A DNA stretch of 64,000 bases from Camelus ferus (lineage: Eukaryota), in NCBI RefSeq assembly GCF_009834535.1, contig NC_045696.1, positions 81,966,001 to 82,030,000 of the forward strand, written 5' to 3'. Below the pieces are notes generated by a model. It was not told where the DNA came from. It worked only from the letters and a program-made list of their open reading frames with translations, and searched no databases. The position numbers were made by a program, and so were the translations under genes. Positions 4,058 through 62,880 of this stretch are shown here, one piece after another (the first letter of the stretch is position 1; every line of letters begins with the position of its first letter).

Positions 4058-5119
4058 CTGTTGAGAACAATCATATCAGCGTTACACTTGAAATATTTTG
4101 CATAATACAATATATTTCTAACACTGAGCTATAACTATACCTATAATACTTTTAATATTTTCTGACTTAAGTTCTTAATTATTTTCTTACATCATTCCAA
4201 ACAACACAATCTAACTATTCAAGAGGTAGGATGAATTCATGAGTTGGGGTCAGCAGGGTGGTGTTAAGAATGGAGAGGGAGCTGAAATCTAAGAAATGCT
4301 GGAGGCAATGGAGATGCATTAATTAAAAAAAAGAGACTAACTTTGGTGACTAGGAGATTGGAGGTATCACTGCCAGAAAAATAAAGTGTGAGCACAGGAT
4401 CAGACTGACAGAGTTGATGAGATACTGAGCTTGGTTTTTCACGCTGAAGTTAGAAGTTATAAGGGGACATCAAGAGGAAAGTCTGCTGAAAGCTTGATGT
4501 ATGAAATCTGAGTTAATGAGAGGACACTTTCAGAGACATTTCCACAAGCTACAGGCAGAAAACAGGCATGAGGCAGTTCAGCTAATGGAAAACATTCTTT
4601 TTTTAATACAACACCAAGTCTCCTTTGGAATGACAAAGGCAGCCTTACAATTCATTAACAACTAGAAACTCAGGCCTCTGATAATTTACAGAGAAGGCTC
4701 AAGACAATCTTTTATTAGATACCTGCAAAATCCTCAGCACACAACCAACAGATGTACCCGTGAGAATTAAGTATGAATTTTCTGAAGTGAAGAGTATCAA
4801 GAAAAACAAAGAGCAAATTTTGAGAAAGATAAACTACTAAGCACAAAACAGAAAAAAAAAAAGGTATTATGAAAACTGAAGGAGAATGACGATTCAAAAG
4901 AAAGCTCAACACATTAAAATTTAAAAATAATAATCTGATTTGGTAACAAGGATAAATTAAAAGGAGTGAAAGAAACTGGATTAGAGCAGATTAAGAAAGC
5001 AGAGAATGGTAAGAAGGTAAAGCAATGTACAGACTTAAGTACAGCTGAGTGAAAATGATAAAAAAGAATCAAATGGAACAAATGCACAGCAACTTCACAG
5101 GGCCTGGAAAAAAGGCCTG

Positions 5120-7330
5120 CTGACCTACAATTCTATACCCTGAAAAAATAGCCTTCAAAATGAAAGTGGAATAAAAACATTTTCAGACAAACAAAAACTA
5201 AGGAAATCTATCATTAGCAGGCATTCATTAAAGCAAATAGAGTTCTTCGAGAAGAAAGAAGACCTCATATAGAAGATGCAGGAATGAGTACTGAACAAAA
5301 AGAATAAAATATGGATAAACCTAAATAAGATTTATCCACATTTAAAACTATTGACTATTTAAAAACACTAATACACACACACACACAAATATTTAAAATA
5401 TGACAGAAATAGCACTAAAGGCAGGAAGGAAGCATGAATAAATTTAAATTGTTCTAAGGTCCTTGCATATTCTGGGAAATGGTAAAAAAATATTAATAAT
5501 TCATGCTGAATTTAAGTAAGTTAAGAGTATAAGATGCAATCTCTAGAACAACCAGTAATAGAATAGAATCACTAACCAAAAGAGAGTTGCAGCTAAACTA
5601 ATATGAGACAAAGTAGTTGTAGCCTACAGTGGTGGCTGCTTCTAAAGAGCACCAGTGATCCCCATGTCCTAGTATTCATGCACTTGCAAAGTCCCCTCCC
5701 CTTGTGTGTGGGCTGGACCTAGTGACTTGCTTCTGATGAAAAATATGTGACAAAAATTGACGGAATGTCACTTCTGAGATTAGATTACAAAAAACTGTGT
5801 GTTCAGTCTTGCTAGCATTTATTTTCTCTGGATCTCACTGCTTGCTTGCTTTCTCTGATGAAGCAAGCTACCTTGCTGTGAGCTGCCCTAAGGCCCTGTG
5901 GCAAGGTACTGAAACCTGCCAACAGTGAGGTGAGTGTGAAAGCAGTTCCTTCCCCAGCCAAGCCTTGGGATGACTGCAGTCTGCCAGCACACTGACTGCA
6001 GTGTGGAATGGACTCTGAGACAAGGACCTAGATAAGTCACACTTGGGCTTCTAACCCATAGAAATTGTAACATAATACATTTTGTTTCAAGACACTATAT
6101 ATTAAGGTAATTTGGTAAGCAGACTTTAAGACAAGAAGCATTTCTACAGAGAGAAATTTCTTCATGAAAAAGGGCTAACCCAATAGAAGATTTTATGATT
6201 CTGAATCATAGACTCATAAGAATACTTAATAACATAGCCTCAAAATATATGAAGCAAAAACTAACAAAACTAAAAAGAGAAGGTAAACTCAGAAACCTTT
6301 TGGTACAGAAAAAACAAGCAGTCAGTGAGGTAACAGAAGACTGAATAAAATTGTTAATAATCTTGACCTAATTGACATGTACAGTTACCACACCCAACAA
6401 CTATAGAACATACTGCATCTAAAAATACATATGGAACATTTACCAATGCCTATGTGTTCAGTCTTCAAGCAAATTTCAACAAAATTCAAAGGACTGAAAT
6501 CACACGGAATGCGTTCTGACTTACAGCAGAATTAAGCTAGAAGTTAACAAAAAAATTTCCCAAGTATTGGAAAATCAATTAGTATACTTTTAAATAATAT
6601 ATGGATCAAAGAAGAAACCATAATAGAGATTAAGATATATTTTAAACTGACAAAAAAAAAAGGAAATAATAAGAGGAGAAATCTGTGTACTAGAATAGAA
6701 AATAAGCATTCAACAAAGAGCTAAAAGTTCTTTAAAAAGACTAATAAATTGATACCCTCCTGGCAAGACTGATGAAGAAAAAGAGAATGCACAGGAACTT
6801 TTATCAGGAATTAAAAAAGCATATAATTTCATATTCTCAGAAATTAACATCTTTATGTCAATAAATCTGAAAATTTAGGTTAAACAAATTCCAAGGAATA
6901 ACACAAACACAACAAGAAACAGAGAAGCTAAACTGTCCTACATCTATTCAGAAATGGAATCTAGGATTAAATACTTCCCACAAAGAAAACCCCAGGCCAA
7001 GAGTGCTTTTCTGACAAATTCTTTCTAAAATATAAGCGATAAATAATGCTAATCTTATAAGATTCTACCTTGGAAATAGAAAAAAATCCCAAAATCATTT
7101 TATGGGTCCAGTATTATCTTGACACCAAAACTAAACAATCCAATACAAAAAGGGATTTACAGGCCAATGACTCTCATTAATAATTTTTTTTAAAACCTAA
7201 ATATTGGCAATCAGATTCATCAATATATAAAGAGAGTAATACATCATGACACATTAAATTTATTTCAGAAATGGAAAATAGGCTTAACATTTGAAAATTA
7301 ATGAAATTTACACATGATCAACTCCATAAA
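5120..7330 (+). mobile_element. Old L1M ORF1/ORF2 remnant interrupted by an MLT1 LTR
   Basis: A-rich L1 motifs (ATAAAAACATTTTCAGACAAACAAAAACT; CTTCCCACAAAGAAAACCCCAGGCC). Confidence 0.7.
5628..6133 (+). mobile_element. MLT1F-like MaLR LTR
   Basis: GTGTGGGCTGGACCTAGTGACTTGCTTC and ATGTCACTTCTGAGATTAG match my recollection of the MLT1F consensus. Confidence 0.75.
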
Positions 7331-7354
7331 TGCTATAAAATGTCTTTTTTTCTC

Positions 7355-7465
7355 ATTTTTAAAAATTGAAGTATAGATGATTTACAATGTATTAGTTTCT
7401 GGTGTTCAGCATAGTGATTCAGTTACACATATAAGTATATACCTTATTTTTCATATTCTTTTTGT
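7355..7465 (-). mobile_element. Short L1 3'-end fragment
   Basis: ATTGAAGTATAGATGATTTACAATG...TTAGTTTCTGGTG...CAGCATAGTGATTCAGTTA, a typical laurasiatherian L1 tail. Confidence 0.65.
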
Positions 7466-7497
7466 ACCTCTATTAAAAAAAAAAGAATTTAAAAAAA

Positions 7498-7586
7498 GGG
7501 AGGAGGGGTGTGTGCTCAGTGGTAGAGTATGTGGTTAGCATGTGTGAGGCCCTGGGTTCAATCCCCAGTAACTCCATTAAAAAAAG
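7498..7586 (+). mobile_element. tRNA-derived SINE (Vic-1-like, short)
   Basis: GCTCAGTGGTAGAG...GGGTTCAATCCCCAG followed by an A tail. Confidence 0.8.
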
Positions 7587-7996
7587 AAGAGTATGTTTTT
7601 AATAAAATTGAACATCTTTTCATGATGAAGACAAAAATCTTAGCTTACTAGGAATACAGATAAATAACCAGACCACAAAATGGAAGGATCTATAATATAT
7701 TTTAAACAATACTATCAAGTATTCTAAACACCATTCTTAAATACATTTATAGTTTTTAGATTATGCTATCTTAAAGTGAAAATAAGCTATCACACCAGAT
7801 CATTTCTTAATTTAAATGAAATTAGTAATCATTGGATTAAATCAGAATAAAAATCTAGAATCATCAAAAATCATCCCTGCATCTTACCACCATGATCATT
7901 TAAAAATCTAAGCAAGTCAGTCTGTCACATTTTTAAACTGTCTAGCTATTATTAAAAAGCTGATGACATAATGTACCATAAAACTAATTATCTTAC

Positions 7997-8055
7997 CTCC
8001 TTTTCTTCACCAACTTGGTCCAAACTCTCATGACTTGCAGGATTATATGGAATTA
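7997..8055 (-). CDS. PRKCI: PRKCI exon 8 (VIPYNPASHESLDQVGEEKE; hinge)
   Basis: 59 nt, acceptor TTTTTAG, donor GAG|GTAAGA. Confidence 0.96.
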
Positions 8056-9143
8056 CTAAAAACCCAATCCCAAACAAAAAAAAAAAGAGAGAGAGAGAGA
8101 AAAACAAAGTATCCATTAACTCAGTTTGACTTAAAAATTTCTCCTGATCTGACTTTCCTTAGTTTTTATTTCTGAATAAGTGTTCATCATTTACAATTGA
8201 ATATCTGTCCTATTAACAAAAAATTATATGTAAATATGAGTTAAATCTTAATTTTTAATGAGGGTAAAGACAGCAGGAACCAATCAACAGCCAAGTACTG
8301 ATTTTAACAAATATTTCTGCTATTTTAAAAATACTTCCCTTCCTTACAAATTAATCAATTCCTTCTAAAAAAGGTGACTCCATATACCTTATTTAATTGT
8401 TTTAGTATGACTGAGGCCTAGAGACAAAAGGTCTCCAGTTTTCACTCCTCACTTCCTTCATACTCAAAATGTTCCTGATTCAGAATGTACCATGCACACA
8501 GGTCAGGTAAAGAACTGACAAAGACTGGACTATAAAGCCTTCATTTCTTTTAACCAGCTTCTTCCATGAATAATATACTGCATTCTGTCCTTCCAGAAAA
8601 ACCCCTTTGCTTTCTTTTTCTTGATTCACTCCAGATCAGACTGCTCTGTCCCATTTAATTGCTCTCCAAATTTCCCAGATACATATTTAAGGTTTTGTAT
8701 CTATGAGACATTTGAACTCATGATCTTTTTTGAATTTTCTGTGCAGCATCTCTTTAGTTTTACATAATTTCTATATTTCATAATAGAGCTTTTAATAAAA
8801 ATAGGTCACTTGAATATAGTCAACATGACCCACAAAATCAGTACATGTTTTCATTGTTGAAAAAAAATAGGTTTACTGAATATAAAGGGGTCTCAAAAGA
8901 AATTTATCTGAATGAAAGAAAACAGTCATTTGTTGTAGTTTACTTAGTTGTCTTTACTTTATAAAGTGCCGGATGTATATGTTATATATTGTGACTCTGC
9001 TGTTAACACGATGAAATATGGTTACTTAGCTTTTATTTCAGAAGAATATCAGTGTTTTTAAACTTAGGTCAAAGATTCACATAAAGAAGTCTTTAAATGA
9101 TACTTTGTTAATGAGCAGTGGTTTGTGCCAGTAACATCCTTAC

Positions 9144-33821: not shown

Positions 33822-33943
33822 CTTCCTCATCTATCCACTTCATGGTGAAAAGCTGTTCATTGTCAAAAGAACACATGTCTCGAACCTCATTGCAAAGGCC
33901 CTCAAAGGAGATTGAAGGTTCAAAATGAGTTATCATGATATCT
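33822..33943 (-). CDS. PRKCI: PRKCI exon 2 ([42 protein letters not shown]1)
   Basis: 122 nt, acceptor TTTTCAG, donor G|GTGAGT, frame continuous. Confidence 0.97.
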
Positions 33944-34173
33944 CTGAAAAAGAAAAGGAGTTTTAAGTTAGTGACTAAAACTAATATAAGGCTCTATAAT
34001 ACCTAAGGTCTGTAATCTGTAGATGCCTGACAATCTGATGGACTTGCGCTACTTTGTGTATGCATCAACATGTGTTGCTTACAGTAAACTATCTCTGTAA
34101 GGCAAAAAATAAAATATCAACGTTAAATAATGCTTAAAAATAAAAATAATGAATTTATGAGAAACCTTATTAA

Positions 34174-35680
34174 GGCTGCCTCTCTTACTCCCTCATCTTT
34201 GGAAACAGCCCGCATTCTGTCTATGGAGTGTGTATCTACTTTTATTTTAAACCGGAGCACCCAGCCCCGACATCTTGTGGCCTTTCTCTCACATTTTGAA
34301 ACAGCCTACACTCTATATAGTATGCATCTCTCTAAATAAATCTACCTTTACTCAACTGTGGCTCGCTCTTGAATTCTTTCCTGCGCGAAGCCAAGGATCC
34401 ACACTTGGCGGGGCACGTCCCAGGGGCTTAACCAAGACCTGGGACACAGCCCTCCTCACGCCCCACATTCGTTTTTCCTGTATCACCTCTCTGGCATGGG
34501 GCGTTTAATTAAAGAGATGGGGCTCAAAGGGCATAATCTCGATCCACCTATTGGGCTACAGCTGCCCTCTCTTGGGGAGATTCAAGTAGCCCTTTAGGTG
34601 GCGGCTGACGCTGAGGCCAGCTCTCTAGCCGTGAAGAAGCCCACCGAGCCGAAGGCTTTTCTCTCCTCGATCTTTTCTCATTCTCTCCCCTATCGCTCTC
34701 TCTCTTCAGACTCGAGAAGATCCACCAAGGAGACCACTTGGACATCTAAATTAAGACCACGTGGCAAGTAATTGGCAACCTGGTTGGTGTTTAACCAGGC
34801 CTTTTAAATCTTTAGTCGTTATAGACAGTTGAACTGCTGTTACAAAGGTGCTTCATCTTTAAGAAGACTCATCAGAGGTCTAAGGAAACAGTGGGTTACA
34901 ACAGTCTCACATCAGAAGACGGCTGTGCGAGGATTCCAGCCCATACCACCCTCTGACGCAAAAACAAAAGGCTGTCCTGCCCCTGGGAACCCTAGATTAG
35001 GCATTCAGAGATTTTTCACTCCCTGATAGGCAGGGTCAACGCCCCTACCCAGCCCTGAAGTAGTTTCAGATGACGGACCATCACACCCCTCTGCACCCCC
35101 ATAAGATTATGGGAGTAAAATCTCTGAGGGGGGATGAGACAGGAGGCAAGGGGGCAGGGCACAGTCATTCAAGGAATGACACAGCAATTAACACCAAAAT
35201 GATCGAAGATTCAACTCTCAGTAGGCCTTGAGGTTCAAGATGGCGGGAGATTTGACTTCCAATAGACCTTGAGCTTCATTATATGCCCATTGTAATATTA
35301 ACATAGTAAATGACACTGCCACAGGCGCCATGACAGCTTCAAGGCTGACCATAAAAGGTCAAAGAGTGGGTGGTGGCCCAATTCCTGGGAATCCCAGCCC
35401 TTTCCTCGGGGTAGTTGGAATGGTCCTCCCCCATGTTTGCATGTGAAGCTACTTGACCCCATAAAAACTGGCAACACTGCCTCATGGCCCCCTCTCTCAC
35501 TCCCTCATCTTTGGAGACTGCCCACAGTCTGTCTATGGAGTGTGTATCTACTTTTACTTTAACCTGAACACCCAACCCCCACACTTTGTGGCCTTTCTCT
35601 CGCCTTCTGAAACAGCCTATACTCTATGCAGTATGTATTTCTCTAAATAAATCTACCTTTGCTCAAAAAGGAAAGAAAAA
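34174..35680 (+). mobile_element. ERV1-like element with retroposed-RNA structure R-U5-internal-PPT-U3-R-A tail
   Basis: ~180-bp R duplicated (34174-34354 and 35486-35665); U5 ends TCCTGTATCA at 34485; PPT GAGGGGGGA at 35126-35134, then U3 starts TGAGACAGGA; A-rich tail; TSD AAACCTTATT. Confidence 0.85.
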
Positions 35681-36299
35681 CCTTATTCAATCTCCCCTCT
35701 TCATTCAGGAAGCCCACCCTAACTGTTCTAACAGACAGCAGTCTCACTTTTGCTTTAATGTTAGTTATCACAAGCTTGCTCTTTTGTGAGGCATTACAAT
35801 CCACAAATAATTCCATTGTTGATAAGCTTCTGTATTACATTTAATTGAAATCTATTCCAATCCCTAGTGCTCCATCTCCCCTACCCTTCTACTTTCATCC
35901 AAGAGATGGCCATTCAAAAATTTGACAAAGATCAGTCATGTCCTTTTCCTCAGCCCTGACTTCCACAGATTAAACACCCATGAGACTGTCAATCATTCTT
36001 TGTATGGAATGATTTTTTGATTTCATGCCTTCATTTTCATTTTTTCCAAATGAACTGCGATTTGCCAAAATTGGTTTTAAAATAGGATTCATATTTTAAG
36101 GTAGACACCCCCAAAATGGAAGAAATAGACATAAATGTGTATTTATATTTATTTTACTGTTAAATAAGCCACAGTTTTTAAATAAAATTAATCCACATAG
36201 CAGCTATTCACCACAAGATTTAAAAATGCAACAAAATATTTTAGAGCAGAGGTCTGGGGTTTTCTTTAAGGAGCCATGAGAAGGCTCCCTGTGATCTAA

Positions 36300-36750
36300 T
36301 CTAATACATAGTAGCCAGCCACAGTCATCCTTGCAAACGTAAGTCAAATAGACTGAATGACTCTAATTTAACGTATAGTGATTTCTACGTGCCAGAGTCT
36401 GTCGTAAGGGTTTTACAAAAATTAATGTAGTTCATGTTTTTCCTCTGTGTGTGTTTTTTCAATAAGCACTATGACTTTCCTTTGTTTTAAACTCTTCAAA
36501 TGCCTTTCCCCCCTCTCATGCAGAATAAAATCCAAAGTCCCTAGCAGGGTCTACAAGGCCCTGTGTGAACTGCCCCAGCTGCCTCTCCGACTACCTCTTC
36601 TACCTGGACAGTTAAACCAATGTTACTAGTCCACTGTCTACCCCAGCTAGAATGTAAACTTGAAAGTAGGAATTTTGTTTTGTTCATTATATTCCTAGTG
36701 GCCAATATAGTGTCTAGCAGAGAATGGGCATTCGATAAATATTTGTTGAA
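36300..36750 (+). mobile_element. L2 3' remnant
   Basis: AGAATAAAATCCAAAGTCCCTAGC...CTAGAATGTAAAC...ATAAATATTTGTTGAA; other L2 pieces at ~38520-38655, ~43080-43960 and ~63230-63620. Confidence 0.65.
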
Positions 36751-37899
36751 GAAAAAAAAAAGGAACTGTGTGAACAGACGTGCATAGTTGGAACCTAGAA
36801 CACAGAGTAAGAAATAAGGGATTAAAATTTTTAGTCATCTGCAAAAATGTTAAAACTGCAATCTTTAGTGACCTTATAGAAGTAGTAAGTCAAACATAGA
36901 AACTGAATAGCTTTTTCTTGATAATCATTCTCTTTCTGAGCATCTCATGGTTTTCTGTCCCTGCCTCTTAGAGGCATTCTTCCTTGGCTTTCATGACAAT
37001 ATGCTTCCCTGGCTCCCTTTCTACTATTCTGAACACTTCAATCACAAGACACTCTTCATGCCCTCTCTCATATTCATTCTATGTCTCTCTCTTTCTGAAA
37101 GTTAATTCACATTCAATGTTTTAACTATTATCTCTATATAAGGGTCTCCTAAATCTGTAATCCCAGCTCTCTGTGTAGTATTTAAGACTCTTGATAAACT
37201 GGTTCCACTTTCTGTTCTCAATCTGATCCTTGCCATTCCTGACACTGACTCTGTTACAGACATCTGGTTTACTCACAACCCCCACACATAAGACCTTGGT
37301 GATCCAAGTTTTAATCTTAAAAGTAAGATTGACTGTTTGTATGCATTATGTTCCTGAGTTCCTCAGTTTAAGGCTCAGTTTACAGAGGGAGATGGGGATC
37401 TCTCTTTAATTGGCTATTCAACATCAACCCCCATCAAACCTTTTTCACCCACACTATGCTTGTCCAACATGTATCTTATGTCCATCTTTTGTTTTCAACT
37501 AATTATATACACACATCCTCAATTAAATTATAAACAACTGAAAGACAAAAATTCTTGGCCTTTTTAATACATTCACATAACATAATAGGGACTCAAATAC
37601 TACTTAACTGAATGTGGAAGAAGTATTTTCTAGGAGAAACTCATCTTCTAGAAAGTGCACTTTTGACAAGAAAATATCACTGTTTATGTTTCCTTAGCCT
37701 ATAAACATGTATGGAATATTCAGTGTGTTTCAGATATTTGAACTAAGTTTTTATCTTATACGATCTTCACAAGAACTGTCAAACTAGACAAATTAATCCT
37801 ATTTTACAGATTTTAAAAGCACAGCACAAATGAATATTTGCTGGAGTCTCACAGTTAGGAAACAGAATATATATTCAAATCCACGTCTCCTAATGACAC

Positions 37900-38310
37900 G
37901 TGGTGCATGCTGTGCTCTAACCTCCCCCTCCCTCACCTCCAGAATCCCCCATTAGCAATGGATCATTTATTACACTAGCTCCTGGGAGTGCTACCAGTAG
38001 ACAACCCCAGCCGTCAGCCTCTTTCAGAGATATGACTCCTCCCTTATGGTCAAACCCCAATGACTGATTCAAGGTGGGTACAAAGGTCCTAGATGTGACT
38101 CAGAAAGGCTCTCAAGTGTCAACTCATCTTCAGAATTCCCTGGAGGGTCAACTGAGGTTTCTGTTGAGACTTCACAGCATCTGGATTTTTTTCTACCTAA
38201 GCCTGCTTCCTTCCCTTCCCGTCTCTTCCATAATCATCAATCCCAAGAGCACTCCTGAAAAAACGTCCTGCATGCTAATCTGAGATATCACTTTCCACAG
38301 GAGCATCCAC
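37900..38310 (+). mobile_element. LTR16-like ERVL LTR
   Basis: CCTGCTTCCTTCCC...AAGAGCACTCC...CCTGCATGCTAATCT 3' motifs. Confidence 0.55.
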
Positions 38311-38724
38311 CCAAAGCATAGCTATTATCAGATGATACTATCTGACAAAAACATAATGCATAAAAACAGTCAATCTTACTTTCAAGAGATTGGCTAATGA
38401 AAACTGTAATCCTTGTTTCAGAGACTAAATCAGTTTACTCTATAGCACATGAAGCTAGTTAATTTTTTTTTATTCTTCAGAGAAAATAAATTGCTGGCAT
38501 GTATAAATTATACATATTTTACAGTCTGTCTCCCCCAGCTAAATGTAAAATTCATGAGAGCAGGCATTTTGTTTTGCTCATTGCTGTTATCACCAGTATC
38601 TGAAGCAGCATCTGGCCCACAGTAAATGTTCAATTAATAATTGTTGAGTGAATGGACTCTAAAGAAAGCGTGAGAAAATGTAAGCATAAAAAGCTTTTCA
38701 CAAAGGAGTAATGACATATATTAG

Positions 38725-38930
38725 ACAGCCACAGAATAATGGTTAAGACCATGAGAGCTAAAGCCAGTATGCCTGGGTCTGAATCCAGGCTCTATCACTT
38801 AGGTGAGTTACTTCTCTGTGGCTCAATTTCCTTACCTACAAAATGGGAATAATAATATTTCCTATGGTGTTATAAGGCGTTAATGGATTAAGTGAATTAA
38901 TATTTATAGTACTCAGAATAGTACTGAGCA
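38725..38930 (+). mobile_element. MIR SINE
   Basis: GCCTGGGTCTGAATCCAGGCTCTATCACTTAG...AAAATGGGAATAATAAT. Confidence 0.7.
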
Positions 38931-39579
38931 TATATCACACTCCATATGTGTTGAATAAATTTTAAAACATGTATCCTACAACACTTTAAATAGACGTGAA
39001 ACCTTATTAGAACAATAAAAATAATACAACCTTCTAAAAACAACCTACAGATGCTTCTGGTTTAATATGGTGGAGGGAACACAAATCTATATCCTTTCAT
39101 CCTAAGGGCCCACTAAAATGACAGAAAACTGAAACAACAAATTTATCAAAGTCTTATAAAACAAAAAAGGGACCAGCAGTAGACCAGAAAGTATGAGAAA
39201 ATCCTAAATGACTGAAAACAGATGGTATAAAATTGACAGAAAACATACCAGCCCCCAAAACCAAAGTTAAGAGAAACTCTTAAAAGAGAGAAATTTTATT
39301 GACACAAGATTACTTCTCGTTCTTTAACCATCTAATCATACCTCTTGGCTTTTCAAGGACATGACACATACATAAGCATTTATTACAAGTGTTTTTTAAA
39401 TTTGCTTTAAAGAAAAATTTATGAGTTAAAAGAACAGTGTTATAAAACTTTACAATGTAAAAATTACCAAGAAAAATCAAGATGTAGAGAAAGTGAAAGG
39501 AAGTATAAATTCAAAAATGTCTCTTTCCCAGCGGAGTCAACACTCTTATCTAAAACTAATATTTAAAAATAAAAGCAGG

Positions 39580-40600
39580 GAACAAGAAAAAAAAATAACC
39601 CAAATTAAAAAATGGGCAAAGAACCTAAACAGACATTTCTCCAAAGAGGATGAACAAATGGCCAACAAGCTCTAGAAAAAATGTTCACTAACACTAATCA
39701 TTAGAGAAATGCAGATCAAAACGTTAACGAAACATCACCTCACATCCATTAGGATGCCTACTACCAAAAAAAACCCAGAACAACAAATGTTTTCAAGGAT
39801 ATGGAGCAATAGGCACCTTGTGCACTGTTGGTAGGAATCTGAAATGGTGTGGCAGCTATAGAAAACTGTATGAAAGTTCCTCAGAAAGTTAAAAATAGAA
39901 TTTCCATATGATCCAGCAATTCCACTTCTAGGTGTATATATACTCAGAAGAATTGAAAGCAGGGAATCCAATAGATATTTGTACACCTACATTCATAGCA
40001 GCATTATTCACAATAGCCAAAAGGTGGAAGCAACCCAAGTGTCCACTGACAGATGAACAGATAAATAAAATGTGATATATAAACACAAAGAAGTATTATT
40101 CAGCATTAAAAAGAAAGGAAATTCTAACACATGCTACAATATGGATGAACCTTGAAGACATTATGCTAAGTGAAATAGGCCAGTCACAAAAAGACAAATC
40201 CCGTATGACTCCATTTATATGAAGTATCTAGAGTAGTCAAATTCATAGAAACAGAAAACAGAACAGTAGTTGCTGGGGGGGGAGGTGGAATAAGAGCGTT
40301 GTCAGTATAGAGCTTCAGTTTTGCAAAATGAAAAAGTTCTGGAGATTGGTCATATAACATAGTGAATATAGTTAGCACTATTGAATTGTACACTTAAAAA
40401 TGGTTAACGGGGGGAAGGTATAGCTTAAGTGGTAGAGCGCATGCTTAGCATGCACAAGGTCCTGGCTTCAATCCCCAGTACGTCCTCCAAAAAATAAATA
40501 ACTAAACCTAATTACCTTCCCTCAAAAAAAAAAAAAAAAAAAAGAAAAAGAAAAAAAAGGTTAAGATGGTCAATTTAAATTTTTTACCACAATTAAAAAA
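39580..40600 (+). mobile_element. L1MB-like 3' part with a nested SINE
   Basis: AAAATGGGCAAAGAACCTAAACAGACATTTCTCCAAAG...CCAGCAATTCCACTTCTAGG...GTACACTTAAAAATGGTTAA. Confidence 0.85.
40409..40558 (+). mobile_element. tRNA-derived SINE (Vic-1-like)
   Basis: Same head as 2657, long poly(A), flanking repeat AAAA(T/A)GGTTAA. Confidence 0.85.
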
Positions 40601-43600
40601 GAAAAGCAGGAGAAGGTATCATTTAAGTTATAAATGTAACAAGAAAAACTAAAAATAGTCAGGAGAGGAGGCAATGAAGAAGTGCTAAATTCCTCATCTT
40701 TCATATTGATCAGCAGATATAATAAAGGAAAACAACATTGTAACAGTAGTTCTAGGTGGTGGGATTGGGGAAGACTAAAGACAGAAAGAAGATGTACTGT
40801 GTACTTAAACCCTTCTGAATGGTATAGATTACTATTAGTTTTTCTACCACCATGTAAAGGTATGATCTTACGATAAATTTTGCTTTTTAACAAAATATAA
40901 ATACAATATAAAACAAATTTTAAATGACGGTAGTAAATAAAATTGATTTAAATATGTAAAATTTTTATTTTTTAAAAAGAAAATTATAAAATAGTTCCTT
41001 CTTCTAGTGACATTAAAAGGGAGCCTGCTTGTCTTAAATAAATTTTTCTTTCAAAATACCCTCAAGACTACTAGTATGAGGAGGTGAGGGTTGGGAGTAT
41101 ATATTTTAGAATAAAATCAGAAGAGAAGGAAAGGCTCCGAATTTTTCTGGCAAAGAACAAGTGTGATATTATCTTTTTTGAATGCAAGAGGCAAAAAATT
41201 AGTATGATCAGATATCATCAAAATATGACTTCCTTTTTAAGGTCCACAGGTAGTTGAAATTGATACATATGTAAGCATGTCTGTAAACAACAGGGATTTA
41301 TCAGAAATCTTATTTTTCGAGAGCTGTTGAAATATTTATCAGAACATACAAATATTTAAAAAAATCTGTGTAATCCTTAAAAAAATCTTAAGTACATCTT
41401 AAAGAGACTCAAAAAGAACTCATGCTTTCTCAACTGCCACTCCTTAAGTTCCAGGAACTAAAACATTTAAGGGAGTTTTTTATAAACATTTCTCTAAGTA
41501 ATTGGGAAAGCACCATGTTCACACATCCCACAATCTCCAGATCCTTATTATAGTACCAAAGCTAAAAATAAGCTGCAAAATAGAGATATTACTTCTAAAG
41601 GTACAAAACAAATTATGCATGGAAGTTTTTTTTTCCTGGTTTTAACATCAGTGTTGGTATAAATTATCTTAACCACTGGTCTTCGACAGAATACAGTCTG
41701 CTTCACCACAATGATACCCAAAATGGCAAATTTAGACATAGTTTTAACTGAATTTTAGAAAAAGAAAAAAAAAAGCATTTTTAATTTTGCTGTTGGGCTT
41801 CAGAAGTCACACTGTTTTAAGCATTCATTATGTTCCTATGTTCTAAAATACTGAATCTAAAGTTTTTCCTTAGGACTGCTTTTAAAAATAAACCTGAAAA
41901 AGAACCATATTCAGTCCTTCTGCTGTCTCAATGCAAACATTTCTCCTAAGTTAAATATGGTATAATCAGAAAAAAAAGCTTTATTTGTGATCACCAATGT
42001 AATAAGATTTACCACAGATGGTAAAATCACTGGGTTTTAAGGAAACAGGATAGGCATACAATCTCAAACTATCACCTCTCAAATTAATTGTTAATTATAA
42101 AAAAGCCATAAAGCAACTTTCATATTTTAATAATCAAGGAAATAGAAAATTGACTCAAAAAGAAAAACTTTCACAGTTATGAATCTGACAATAAAGAAAA
42201 AAGTAATCTTAAAAAGCCCCATCAATATGAGAAAAGAGAAATTTCTCTGAAGGGTAAAACTCAGTTTTGTATTCTGGTTTCACTAAGCCTCAATGTTATC
42301 ATCCACAAAATGGAGATAATGATATCTACCTCTGAATACTGTGTAAAAAAAAAAAAGTTAGCATTTTTTGCTAATCTTTTTTGCAAACATGTAAAAGACC
42401 AATAAACATGCAATGGAAGCATAAGGAAAATGCTTCCTTCCTACACTGTTGTTGGCAATGTAAATTGATAAGTTTTTGGAGAACAATATCAAGGTTTATA
42501 ACAGGCATATCTGACCATGTTTGCAAGAGTATATACTAAATATAAGGATGTTCTTTCAACATGATTTGAAGTAGTGATTTAATGAAAGTTCATCAATCAG
42601 AAAAAAGATTAAATTATTGTATAACAACACTATGGGACACTATGTACCAATTATAAAGAAAGAGGTGGATCATTCTACCTACCTATATGTATCTATCTCC
42701 TAATCTGTCTATCCTGACATGGAAAAATGACCATGAATGAAAAAACTCTAGTTACAGAAACATGTATAGAAACACAAACACATTTACTGGAGAAATAAAA
42801 GGGTGTGTCTGTGCATATGCTTAAAGATATATTGATACACTATAGAATATCCCAAACTGTTAACGGGGTTATTACGGCTACCCTCCAGAAGTGGGGGTGA
42901 GAGGCTACAGAGGGAACTTTCTGCTTTATGTATTTCTGTATTTTTAAAATTCACTTTTAGTGCCTTGTCTTTGAGATCTGTATTTGGCCACTGGTGGCAT
43001 TTTTGTTTCTATCATCATTCTCGGCCACATTCCCACACAGGTTAGCTGGCCTGCACAAGTGCTGAGGACACAGAGCAGGCGCACAGGGAGCAATTGTTCA
43101 GCTAATTCTGGGCATTTCCACCTGGATGTTCCCAAAGCACCTTGAACTCAAAACTCGGTTACCTGTTCCAGGTAAGTAATTACCTTTTCTCGTAAATCTC
43201 TTCCTTCTGTACTCCCTAATCTCTCTCCAAATAGTAAGTCTGTGAGTTGTCAGACCCCTTCCCTCTTCCCCACAGGCAACCCATCTCAAATTCATATTGA
43301 TTCTACACCCTAAAATCGTCACTGAATCCATACCCTCTTTTCCAACTCCTCAGAATTTTTCACCTGGACTACTTCCAAAGCCTCCAGATTAGTCTCATCG
43401 ATCGCTAATTCATCTCCATCCATCGCTAATTAATCTAATCATGCATCCTCCTTACTTAAAATCTTCACCTATGTAAAAAAGTCTGAAGCACGAACTATAA
43501 TATTCTGGCGTCTTCATGATCTAGTGCCTGTGATCCCTCTTTTTAGCTCACTTTTCATCAGTGGCCACTTTGCGTTTTACGTCCTAGTGAGGAATGACTA

Positions 43601-46600
43601 TGGGACTGACAACTAAACTGATCTTAATTCCCCAAACATACCCTGCAGTTGTGCAATGCTTGGAATGACCTCCCACCCAACATTATAATCCACCAGACAA
43701 ACCTACTTATCCTTTAAAAGGCTCAAACTTTTCACCATCTAGGAGGGCTTCCCTCACCCCAAACTCCTCCCCAATAGCCACTCTTGCACATACCTTACAT
43801 ACACACACACACTTTTATTAACTCTTCTAAGTTTCTCCTCCAACAAATCTCTTAGTTCTTCACAAGCAGAGCCTTGTACTCTCCAGCTTAGCATCCTCTG
43901 CGCCTACCCTTAGCACCATGTGCCTGGCTTATAGTAGGTATTCAACAACATTTATTAATCTGAATTTAAACACGCTTTGGTAAAATGTGAGATCCTAAAT
44001 AAGACTGGAATTTTTATAATTCATGTTTTAACTAGGCTCATTTCAACCATTAAAAAAAAGACACTCAAGTTACCTTAAAAAGAGGTTTGGGAGCTGTACT
44101 TGAAAGCCATCTAGGAAAATTTTTTCAGGAAAGAGCTGCCTTTTTCTCCTCCGTTTCCTTAGCCCTTTAGTTTGCACATGGGCGGTCCTGGCCTCACTTG
44201 CCTCTCCCTAAACTCTTCAGCTTCAGTCCTCACTGCTAATAAGCAATTTATCTCCATATTATCTAATCCGAACTTCTGAGAGGGCTGTTTTGGTTTTGGC
44301 GCCAGGCCACCATGTCCTTTGTCTCTGGCTGGTAAAGCTACAGCTCAGCTGCCCTGTGGTTAGGTGCCCTACTCCAGAAGCTCCAGGACCAATAACACTA
44401 CCCCAACTCTCAACTGAATATATTATTTTTATTTCCTCAGAACCATTACTCAAGTGTATCGCTAAAATTATTTTGCAATACTTTTAAAAACAAGTCTTGC
44501 CAAGACTTGTTTGCAGTGATAAAAACCCTGCATACTTCATCACTGAACCAGCTATACATTTCCACATATGCCAGGCGTTCATCTCTTCCGATTTGTACAC
44601 ATGCACAGAAAGAATCCTCTGGATTGTCGTAACGGCTCAACAGCAGTGGATTAAGAAGTACTTTCACAAGTTTTTTGCAAAATTTCCCATACGTTTATAG
44701 ACTGTAAAGAAATGAGCAGTTCAGAGATTTCCTTGTTAAATTCTATCCCATAATATCAAGTAACTTCATATAAGGATAGCAACACAATGGCAATCTATCA
44801 CTAACCCACAAAACCTGTTTCTCCTCCTCCAAACTAACACCACTAGGTAATGATTGAAGGAAAGCAGGCCACTCATTGACAAGCTCCCGTGGTGAGGAAA
44901 GAGGAGTACAGGCCAGGAGACAGGCACTCTTAGGTGGTCTCCAATAAAATCAGATTCTCAGTGCTATTAATCTTCTGCGTAAAGACTAGAAGTCTAATTG
45001 AATAATCTGTTATATCTTGGGAGACATCACATTTGCACAAAGAACAAATTTAACAGAATGAGAACACTAAACCCATCATGGAAAGGAGATGGCAATTTAT
45101 TCACTAAAAAATCCTGACTATTCCAAGATTTCAATATTCACTGGAAAGAAGTATTGTTAGAAGGGGATAAGGGTAAAGCTCTCTGATAATGGCCATTCAG
45201 CTGAACGGAAGGAAAAAAAAAACTTTTTCAAATGTAGACTGTCCTTTATATTTCCTGATAGTAAAGGAAGAATTTTCTACTTTAAAATCAGGCAGGTATT
45301 CTAGTTAGCCAACCTGTTTAACTATCCTCATTGGTGACTCATTTTAGTTTCATCTGTAGTAATGAGCAGCTGACTGTGTACATCATACCATCAGTTGAGA
45401 CTATTGTTAATAAACATACAATCTTAACAGACCTAATTTCAGAGGACAGAAATTGGTACAGTTTAGAGAGTGCTGATGTTGTCTTTAAATGAAGCTTGCA
45501 ATGAAGGCACTACTAGAAAGTTTTCATTGGATGAAAGCACTGAAGAGCAAAGGGTTGATTCATTCCTTAGCAGAATTCATAGGTTTTTAGAAACCAAAAT
45601 AAAGGTTAACTTGGATGTCTTAGAAACATTTCAGTCAAGCACTAATAGGTTTATTAAGTCCCTACCCTCCCTTTTCAAAAATAATTGGAGGAATAAGCCA
45701 AGAAAATATATCTATATTCTAAAGTTTCAATTTCTTTCCAAAGGAGACGCTCACAGTGATTTTAATTTATTAACTAGGTCTATTTACATTTGTCAAACTA
45801 ATAAAAGTGGGGAAAAAAAGGAAGCACTAGTTTCTTGATGTTTCATAGTTGGAATTATTGGAAACTAAATTTTAAAAATCAAGAATTTATATTATTTAAA
45901 GTCAGAAAGGTAAACCAGAGAACTAAAAAAATGGTTTAACAATCAAAAATTGAGAGGCATCAGGTGGTGAGGAAGCAAAATGAATGTGCACCCAATTTCT
46001 CATCTTTCAGATGAAGGAATCAATAAATATCACTTAAAGTTGATAAATCAGAAAACAGAAGTATAACTTTTAAAGTAATAAAGGTAACCTCCAGAAGAAC
46101 TGGAAATACACTGCCAACAGTAGTTACCTCTGGAGGTTGGGAAGACTGGATGGGGAACACTTTTTATTTTATACTTCTGTACAATTTGCACTCTCCTACC
46201 ATGTGCGTATATTCATTTTTTAATCTAGCTTTCTAAACTGTCAATAATCAGATACCATTTTAAAAAAGGAAAATGTACTATATTTCATCCTCTGCACCTA
46301 ACAAGTCACAGTCAACTTTCTAAAATACAATGGGTTTTAAAGTGAAATATCTCATCTGTCAAATTAAAGGTAAGGTAATAGGAAGCAAAGCTTTTTTCCC
46401 CACAGTGCTAAGTACATATCATAGCTCTTGTTTTAAAATCAAGACCTCTGTGATCAATTTAAGTAAAAACACTGCTACTATCTGAAATAACTCCTCTGAA
46501 CTACTCCTGAATACAGTCAAGCTAATGAACAGAGAGGTCAGAGACTTCACGGCAGCAACCAAACTAGTAAATCTTTATATCAAATCAATAAAACATTTAG

Positions 46601-47439
46601 GGGTTTCTATTTGCTTTGAAATCAAAACAAGAGAGGCATTTTGAAAGTTTGGTATCTTCACTGATCCTCTCAGGAATGTAAAAGTATGCATTGCAGTTTC
46701 AACCTCCTAGTGCTTGAGTTTTTTTTAAAGGAACTTACTTCTGCTTGGACAAGCAGACAGGCCAAGTGGTCAGGTTTTCTGTTAACTCTTAGTTTCAAAC
46801 CTTTATGCTCACTAACATTTCACCTTTCTAATGCTCCAAAATGTAATTATCTCAAAGAAATTTCAAACCACAGGAATTCAAGAGAAGAGGGACACTTCAA
46901 ATCACTGATTACAGAATATGACCTAACGATTTTAGGACTGGATTATTTCTGGTAACCACAGTAGTTATAACTTAGGTAATAATATGAGTAAAGATCACAG
47001 ATTTAAAAACTGCCTAGGCTCGTCCTCTTCCCGCAATACCTCAACCTATGAGACAGTCCTTGAAGCAACGCTGACAAAGAAGCGTTCACAATTTTTAATT
47101 TACACTACATGTGTAACCTAATCTTGGCGAGACCTAACGTATATCCCTGAAAAGGCATCAAGTTCACTTAAATAATAATTCCTATGGCTAACATACTATC
47201 AGCCTGACCACAGTCCAGATACACGTCGCGAACTCTTCTATGAGATAAAGATAAACCTGACTTAGAGAGCCAGAGGCTTTAGGCCTGCTGGTAATCAAAA
47301 GGGTCATCAAACGGAAGCATTCCTGTCTTCTAAATCCACAGTAAATTTAGTTAACTAAGGCATCACTCAGAATCAATTCTCAACCCCAAACACATCCAGG
47401 CTTAAAGAGACGTAAAGCTCTTGTAAATCTCTTAGCAGG

Positions 47440-48560
47440 CGAGGCTCTCGAACTCACCAGGTGAACCTACTCTTCTCGAAGGCTCCTCCCTCGGACCCTA
47501 CTCTGGACCCTCAGCTGCGCGACTCCCCGACGCCCAGCACTACACCTTGGGGGTGCCCCAATCCAGCGCTCCATGCTCCTCCCCCAACCACTCGGTCCCC
47601 CATCCCGAGTCCCCGGAGTTGCCCGCCCTGATCAACTCTCCCACATCTCCAGCCTCTCACCGGCCCCTCCTCCAGGCCAAGTGGAGCCGGCCTTCCCCCG
47701 CCCTCCCACCGTCACCCCTACCCCACGATACTCACCCGCGGTAGTAGGCTTTCACCCGGACCTGGTGAGAATGGTCCCCGCTGCCGCCGCCTGCGATTGG
47801 GTGAGACATGGTACTGCTGTCTCTCTGGGTCGGCATCTCCTTACACCCCCGCCTCAACGCCGGAGGCCGAGGGTGCGGGGGGCGCGCCAGGCGCGGTCCG
47901 GGACTCCGCAGCCCGAGCCGCTCCCGTAGCCGCGGCTGCCCGCTCGCCTACCTGTCCTCCCCGCCCGCGGCGCGGACCCAAGGGTCGCCTCGCCGGGGCA
48001 GCCGGAACCGCGCGGCTCCTCCCACCGTCCGCGGCGGCCACTGCCTCTACCGCCGCCCGGGCCTAGCACGCCTCCCGCCTCCGCCCCTCCCACCTAGCTC
48101 GCTCCAAAGCCCCACATTCCGGGGGAGGGCGGGTGCAACCATCGATCCAACTCAAGGAACCTCAATGCCCGGCTGAACCATTCTTACGGGGGGCAAAGGT
48201 AAGGGGGAGAGAGGATGGGGACGCTGACCATCACATCAGATACGCCGACAGGGTACCTTTCGTGAAAACTGTGACTGAGGGGATGTGAAGATTCGGGTAA
48301 GTCTAGTTCTGTAAAAGACTCTTCCTACAAGGAAAATGGTAGGGAACTAATGCTGCGGCATCTCACCCCAGTTTCCTAACTTGGTCGCGCCCGCGGTCAG
48401 CCGACTTGGGACCCGGAGTAGGTTCGCCCTGCGGGTTTCTGGGATTTGGAGTCCCCATGGGATTCTGGGACTCGAGGTTCCTTACGCGCAGAGCGCCCCG
48501 CCTTCTCGCTGAAGGTCGATCTTCGGCTTGTGCTCCGGCAGTCGTAGGCGTGGAACTCCT
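47440..48560. promoter_or_regulatory. CpG island / TATA-less PRKCI promoter and GC-rich 5'UTR
   Basis: Dense CpG and high GC around exon 1; GC boxes (CCGCCC ~48081, GGGCGG ~48127); no upstream ATG on the minus strand between 47837 and 48114. Confidence 0.9.
47736..47836 (-). CDS. PRKCI: PRKCI coding exon 1 ([34 protein letters not shown]; start of PB1)
   Basis: ATG at 47836-47834, 101 nt, donor GG|GTGAGT at 47735, inside the CpG island. Confidence 0.96.
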
Positions 48561-61602: not shown

Positions 61603-62322
61603 GGTCAGCAAGAGCATGAGCAAAACCCTTTAAACCACTATTCAACTAAGCAATTACAAACACCATTACAGATATCGGATGGTCACCAGTGATGACAATA
61701 GGGTCCTGCTTAGTTACAATCCCAGCCTTTGTGATGAACTTTGTGTTCGGAGAGGTTAAATGAATTGCCTAAGAGCACCCAGCTGGGAATGGGCAGGATC
61801 AGTGGTTAAACTCAGGTTCTTAACTCTAAATTTCAGGCCTGCATATCTTCCTGCATTAAACTAGACAAAGATCTGTATACACAGATGCACAGACACACAC
61901 AAATATTTAATTACCTAGAAAATATTCCATACCTGTTTAAAATAGCAGATTGCTTCTGGGCTCTTAAATATATCAAGACAGAGGAAATTTATTATAGATT
62001 AAGATTAAATAGTATAGTACTGGCTAAGATAAAATCAGCTTTTAAATATTTTATTTCCATAAAACTACTTCAAGTAAGTAATCTGAGTATTTCTCAAAAT
62101 AATATGTCAATATTACACAAGTTATTTGAATAAAACTATATATATTAAATTATCATAGCATAAATCATTCTGATGTCAATGTATATTGCACTGCACTTTG
62201 TATAAATATATAGTGTATTTAAAATAACCACATAGTACTAATAGTATGTATTTTTCATCTGAAAAAATTAATCAGGGAATGAACATTCATAATATCTAAA
62301 TTAGGCTAGAAAAGTATTAATA

Positions 62323-62880
62323 ATGCTTTTTATTTTGTATATTTTATGATGCTTTGACATCTTCATGGCCTTACTGACAGAGGAGAGACTGCCACTCCCA
62401 GGGCTTTTATCTCTTCAAATTGTCCTAGAGACAGTGAATGACTCCTTCTGTGAATATGCCTTTCATATACAAACCAACCAATCCAAACTTCCTCCTTTAT
62501 TTAATTCTCATACACCAAGCCAATACTCCCCTGGCCTTAGTCACCCCAGGGCCAGGTACTGGACAACTAGAAATCACCCCTATGGACCAGAGCCTGCCAC
62601 AATTATTCAAACTATCCAATCCCAAATTTATTCAAACTTTCCTACACCATCTCGCTCATTCCTTTCAGCAAAAACCACAATAATGGCTCTGGGCCATGCT
62701 TTCTCTTTCACTCCTGCCTCCAGACTGATCCTGGTGCTTCCCCGTGTGGCCCTGCATGGTGTGTTATGCCCCCTTCACTTGGGAACAGTAAATAATAAAT
62801 TCTTCTTTCAAAAGTAGTTGTCCCTGTCTCTGTCACCTTACCATTCCTGATTAAAACAAATTCCAGGTGCAAATCAAGAC
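62323..62880 (+). mobile_element. MER74/MER73-like ERVL LTR
   Basis: TTTTATGATGCTTTGACATCTT...GAGAGACTGCCACTCCCAGGGC...AACCAATCC...AATAAA, ending CA. Confidence 0.65.

Follow-up and report, generated by a model that had tools for sequence, protein, structure and literature searches.

A probable L1-made copy of an endogenous retrovirus RNA in intron 1 of PRKCI

Endogenous retrovirus (ERV) RNA is known to be pasted into genomes by L1 on occasion, mostly in accounts of primates, and the original account of the HERV-W processed pseudogenes is reportedly that of Pavlicek in 2002. Copies of this kind have a 5' LTR reduced to R-U5, a 3' LTR reduced to U3-R, a poly(A) tail, a TT/AAAA insertion site and a target site duplication (TSD) of 5-15 bp (PMC5016936, PMC5537654), while the retroviral integrase leaves a TSD of 4-6 bp (PMC13756887). 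According to reviews, no human group other than HERV-W owes its spread chiefly to L1, and the determinants that suit an ERV RNA to L1 are left open there (PMC5537654). Some HERV-W copies lack pre-gag, and the close ERV-W relatives of New World monkeys made no L1-processed copies (PMC6995185). The HERV-K(HML-2) rec retrocopies at 2q32.1 and 5q15 are also L1-made. In Vicugna pacos, clusters of short non-autonomous ERV1 elements were identified as elements with two fairly intact LTRs (PMC8605555).

Here we describe an element found in a window of 64,000 nucleotides (the whole stretch of DNA that was analysed), lying antisense within intron 1 of PRKCI, 218 nt from the acceptor of exon 2. It is very probably a polyadenylated ERV RNA copied in by L1 and not a provirus inserted by integrase. 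Its features, in window coordinates, are as follows.

33822..33943, minus strand: PRKCI exon 2, by protein match to PKC iota (E 7e-26, better than to zeta)
34162..34171, plus strand: 5' TSD, exact over 10 bp, with a leftward reach possibly to 34157 (15 bp, 2 mismatches)
34174..34354, plus strand: 5' R region, the presumed start of the copied RNA, with no U3 in front and an internal duplication of about 96 nt period
34355..34485, plus strand: U5 ending in TATCA, 131 nt, with the 3' end of the family LTR at 34485
34486..35125, plus strand: short non-coding internal part, multi-copy, with a leader-like pyrimidine-rich 5' half and a 3'-end segment
35126..35134, plus strand: polypurine tract directly ahead of U3, recognised in the sequence
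35135..35485, plus strand: U3 starting with TG, the 5' end of the family LTR, 351 nt, with a TATA-like CATAAAA at 35460
35486..35665, plus strand: 3' R region; its AATAAA lies at 35646, it stops at the cleavage site, and U5 is absent behind it
35665..35680, plus strand: decayed poly(A) tail, 13/16 A, overlapping the TSD by 3 nt
35678..35687, plus strand: 3' TSD, by repeat match, spanned by a contig of run X18

The whole element (34162-35687) thus has the order R-U5, internal part, polypurine tract, U3-R and A-rich tail, all inside the TSD. R measures 180 nt and the internal part 649 nt, for which an earlier sequence-only reading had given about 650, and a normal LTR of the family would be about 662 nt long. 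That reading had paired the 5' R start at 34174 with 35486 and ended the 3' copy at 35665, and both ends stand. The CATAAAA box begins 26 nt and ends 19 nt before 35486, where this TATA-like box would place the start of transcription; no transcription start of the family was seen in the public runs compared. The AATAAA (35646-35651) lies 14 nt before 35665, and the A-rich tail reported behind it is there. LTR homology beyond these ends was looked for on both sides, and the match stops at 34174 on the left and at 35665/6 on the right. The R repeat is the sole self-match of the element inside the window. The alignment of its two copies (34174-34354 and 35486-35665) has 180 columns, among them 17 transitions, 6 transversions and 1 gap (K2P 0.143), a recount of 23 substitutions plus the gap that reproduces the roughly 24 of 180 differences given before. 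The 10-bp TSD, AAACCTTATT at 34162 and 35678, is exact as had been claimed, and it can be extended to 13 nt with 1 mismatch or to 15 nt with 2 (13/15 bp). Two extra A (34172-34173) separate the 5' TSD from R.

Four hallmarks of L1-processed ERV pseudogenes are therefore present in this copy: an R-U5 5' LTR, a U3-R 3' LTR ending at the poly(A) site, a poly(A) tail and a TSD within 5-15 bp. The two complete U3-R-U5 LTRs and 4-6-bp TSD of an integrase-made provirus are not found. L1 is indicated as the route because both truncations fall at the expected start and end of the mRNA, and because the length of the TSD fits 5-15 bp and not the 4-6 bp of integrase. From these hallmarks the enzyme would be L1. 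Against this, the tail has only 16 nt and overlaps the TSD, and the nick motif is not clean: the 10-bp TSD gives TGAG/AAAC, a poor match to the TT/AAAA consensus, and a near-consensus TTT/A(T/A)GA appears only if the TSD is read as 15 bp. The events may be pictured as follows. A short non-coding class I ERV elsewhere in the genome would have been transcribed from its 5' LTR, beginning at R, and its RNA polyadenylated in the 3' LTR at the end of R. L1 proteins would have taken this polyadenylated RNA in trans and cut one strand at an A/T-rich site within intron 1 of PRKCI, where reverse transcription in place would have left R-U5-internal-U3-R-poly(A) between duplications of 10-15 bp. Such a retrocopy, without a promoter in front, would be unable to move again by the retroviral route and would have decayed since. 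The insertion presumably took place in the germ line and was neutral.

We have compared the region with public sequencing runs. In a word screen of positions 33960-36500, half or more of the words were present in 17 of the 24 listed runs (13 of organism A, 3 of organism B and 1 unlabelled). Four of the 24 were aligned at 80% likeness: X4 (organism A) and X13 (organism B), both genome-sized contig sets, X18, a set of RNA contigs, and X24, raw single-cell RNA reads of which about 1% of the run was read; X20-X23, with a small share or none, were left out. Alignment details come from the best rows, 40 out of 902 for letters, 15 out of 309 for joints, 24 out of 2,217 for loose ends and 24 out of 27,588 for pieces, and depth in them does not equal copy number. 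This is a large family, with 10,296 (X4) and 13,334 (X13) contigs aligned to the region. With the median depth of the 8 pieces listed for each run as the unit, depth translates roughly into 5,000-9,000 LTRs and 20-190 internal parts, the two runs giving similar figures. Unrelated flanks appear ahead of 35135 in 153, 146 and 61 contigs (agreement 0.34-0.35) and behind 34485 in 95 contigs of X4 and 93 of X13 (agreement 0.35). The LTRs of the family thus span from 35135 to 34485 in the order U3-R-U5, indicating that the 5' U3 and the 3' U5 are truly missing from the PRKCI copy. The 3' junction is real, being assembled independently in a 419-nt contig of X18 that matches 35621-36036 with 0 differences; this contig may come from intron RNA or from DNA. 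No contig among the pieces listed spans the 5' junction, and no empty site was seen among the best 15 of 309 joints. Organism B likely carries the same insertion, judging from its word share of 0.65-0.69, similar to that of A. A pattern scan of metagenome, viral and prokaryote genome contigs found no copies of the family.

Within R, 34189-34223 and 34285-34319 are alike at 26 of 35 positions, a duplication with a period of about 96 nt. Some relatives omit one of these units (joints 34231-34328 and 34237-34334, among the joints listed), and the long R thus marks a subfamily. In U3 there are two CATAAAA boxes, at 35350 and 35460, 110 nt apart, and relatives vary in U3 length.

The 3' end of R is also where RNAs of relatives end. 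In X24 the depth is highest over 35490-35659, on the LTR-sense strand. Behind 35660, 23 reads of relatives change to a run of A, and A stands at 35670/35671 in every one of the 10 first-mate-minus reads that reach these positions. This picture could alternatively arise from priming on genomic A-tailed copies. DNA contigs with A at 35670/35671 number 8 in X4 and 22-24 in X13, corresponding roughly to 7-8 and 16-19 copies. Having the A-run at the same site in two runs, they indicate that other retrocopies probably exist, which may be sisters of this ERV retrocopy or retrocopies of host RNAs that ended in a solo LTR. Relative to the depth of the internal region, A-tailed R ends amount to 9-15% in X4 and 17-36% in X13. 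Family LTR ends, A-tails of RNAs at the same site and A-tailed DNA contigs together support the retroposition by L1 that had first been proposed from the letters. As for transcripts of the PRKCI-intron copy itself, none of 500 X24 reads (about 1% of the run) was 99% alike. Two further patterns were seen in X24. At 35065-35149 about 70 reads have near-identical loose ends (agreement 0.98-0.99) with the opposite mate direction, and one related locus seems to be transcribed antisense across its purine tract. Close to where R starts (35491-35514), 12-15 reads each are joined to sequence other than U3, and copies elsewhere with R as their first part may be the source.

Other origins of the insertion were considered. 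The same RNA might have entered by a non-L1 route, such as cDNA captured at a double-strand break or another LINE, and the weak match to the L1 nick consensus and the two extra A at the 5' junction would agree with it; we regard this as very unlikely, since a full-length 5' end, a poly(A) end and a 10-15-bp duplication are the L1 pattern, and the dominant LINE of camelids, if the host is one of them, is L1, with BovB at 0.035-0.05% of the genome (PMC6675863). An ordinary provirus from which two separate deletions later removed the outer U3 and the outer U5, with tail and TSD arising by chance, is harder still to credit. Old LTR elements are often truncated, and the short, impure tail and the imperfect endonuclease motif would suit such an origin. 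Nevertheless, it needs breaks at the expected start and at the poly(A) site used by the RNAs of relatives, and no LTR remnant stands outside the element. It also needs a flanking repeat whose chance is about 5-7 in 10,000 (a 10-mer in this arrangement turned up 137 times among about 200,000 randomly paired positions and 30 times among about 63,500 positions). That the element arose in the assembly, or is unique DNA that happens to lie between fragments of two unrelated LTRs, might be suspected from the 5' junction being in no listed contig and from holes in the flank depth, but is scarcely credible given the perfect X18 contig across the 3' junction, the multi-copy internal part ending in a polypurine tract and the 17 runs that share the words.

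Accepting L1 retroposition, the kind of RNA that was copied is less clear. The sequence-only reading had offered two sources, a spliced subgenomic RNA or a non-autonomous one, and the short non-autonomous option fits better while splicing was not borne out. On balance we lean towards an internally deleted non-autonomous element. A spliced subgenomic RNA of a full-length provirus, comparable to the 1.5-kb HML-2 rec retrocopies, which set a precedent of the same size (PMC4351823), is a doubtful source. Longer relatives do exist: two of those listed start matching at 34914, one of them with 2.4 kb of other sequence upstream, and another shares only 34799 onward, just behind a CAG. However, a donor-like CAA/GTAATT at 34767/34768 is retained, and depth shows no step across 34725-34894. 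The alignment of the 34799 relative omits 34797-34798, which would be expected inside if an intron ended in that AG. At 34708-34709 the acceptor-like AG belongs to this copy alone, the letter at 34708 being G for most of the depth (26 and 29 contigs), and 34660-34709 was accordingly ruled out as an unspliced acceptor of the family. A further joint, from 34782 to 34826, is seen in a contig of X13, which could be the orthologue in organism B. Clusters of short non-coding ERV1 elements are moreover described in alpaca (PMC8605555). That the copy was shortened only after its insertion is improbable.

No coding capacity, and no gag, pol or env homology, was recognised in the internal part, whose 7 forward frames gave 0 Pfam matches. 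The earlier suggestion of an env-tail-like end, taken from the TAVRGFQPIP of a 72-aa frame, found no support: Pfam, one of two protein searches, a full HMMER scan and the Atlas were all blank, though frames so short and decayed are easily missed. Two matches from the other protein search, a tandem-repeat protein without Pfam family and a 4,685-aa bacterial-type protein, were rejected as chance, both being repetitive and unrelated. An env origin of the 3' frame is plausible by position; the shared segment of the two relatives starting at 34914 begins just ahead of TAVRGFQPIP. Behind U5 no intact 18-nt primer-binding site was recognised. Against the tRNA-Lys1,2 site (sequence from PMC8775094), the single one scored and picked by eye, the best ungapped match was 8/18, and the gapped score, weak for a tRNA chosen in this way, was reached by 89 of 18,278 tiles.

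The age of the insertion can be bounded. At a rate of 2.2e-9, the K2P of 0.143 between the R copies corresponds to at most 33 My. The camel rate in PMC8605555 lowers this ceiling to 14 My, and both values have a sampling error near 20%. The two R copies derive from the two LTRs of the source, and the value thus sums the divergence of the source and the later decay, making it an upper bound and not an age. The description of the insertion as old agrees with its decayed tail and the 2 mismatches in 15 TSD positions, but the divergence between the R copies, offered as its measure, only caps the age.

The U3 core and the U5 end resemble MER41, and the LTR is probably MER41-like. Families of this type exist as thousands of mostly solo LTRs, as here, with 5,491 copies of MER41_BT and a MER41_Vpa also named (bioRxiv 10.1101/2021.10.01.462810), and MER41E likewise has different interiors with only the last 100-200 nt in common (PMC11905727). 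The MER41B motif (PMC2897888) aligns at 35424-35446, a score reached by 80 of 6,394 window tiles. The tandem-GAS position of our copy has no TTCN3GAA site; elsewhere in U3 a single TTCN3GAA is found at 35168, and a single TTCN4GAA at 35382. With the HERV-W processed pseudogenes the element shares the R-U5 and U3-R ends, the poly(A), a TSD within 5-15 bp and, very probably, L1 acting in trans (PMC5016936, PMC5537654). It differs in its LTR, about 662 nt with an R of 180 nt against the 780 nt of LTR17 with R at 256-326 (PMC5016936, PMC5537654), in its non-primate host and in that no coding remnant was found. Moreover, 135 of 213 HERV-W loci are processed, while A-tailed ends are here only 0.1-0.2% of the R/U5 depth. 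It has neither the LTR17-type LTR nor the primate host of HERV-W/ERV-W, working like HERV-W without being a member. The HML-2 rec retrocopies have the same size of about 1.5 kb, a 10-bp TSD, poly(A) and few copies in a large family (PMC4351823, PMC6091006), but their junctions are at known splice sites and one is 5'-truncated, whereas here the 5' end reaches R. The V. pacos elements, likened by description only, also have a short internal part without recognisable ORF, in contrast to the truncated LTRs and tail found here (PMC8605555).

This kind of copy is already known, and the one in PRKCI is a fresh non-primate case of an L1-processed ERV pseudogene. With signs of roughly 7-19 sister copies, it indicates a route that is neither W- nor primate-specific. 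Tentatively, this non-primate family (probably camelid, MER41-like) might be a second HERV-W-like case in which a sizeable part of the internal-bearing copies was made by L1, and its members might, with similar reserve, form a subfamily of short non-autonomous elements whose primer-binding site has decayed. If true, this would provide an independent lineage for testing which properties let L1 copy an ERV RNA well. The best-ranked open-access listings held no study of such copies in camelids or in MER41-like families, weak evidence of absence, and the main text of PMC8605555 contains neither 'pseudogene' nor 'MER41'. The value of the locus is comparative and it also marks the RNA ends of the family. 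LTR-LTR dating and two-LTR finders mis-handle copies of this type.

The placement within PRKCI that had been read from the letters is confirmed by the exon 2 match to PKC iota; exon 1 ends at 47736, making intron 1 33944-47735, and the flanks of the element have 34% G+C. The locus itself is probably neutral intronic debris without function. On its PRKCI-sense (minus) strand there are AATAAA, ATTAAA and donor-like sites at 34190, 34246, 34488 and 34509; lying a few hundred nt ahead of exon 2, such signals make a cryptic exon or early polyadenylation possible. Upstream of PRKCI, 62320-62800 presumably represents an older, unrelated LTR fragment. Rfam found only 3 tRNA-like SINE heads in the window, none within the element. 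Simple tRNA-derived SINEs were seen at 2657, 7500, 40410 and 55616, three Rfam heads aligning with a fourth, and we assume them to be camelid vic-1-like, which would make the host probably a camelid. Vic-1 is a simple SINE of camels (PMC3531059). Two inverted repeat pairs, with arms about 1 kb apart, are found at 37315-37352/38350-38387 (38 nt, 95%) and 50935-51014/52167-52246 (80 nt, 89%).
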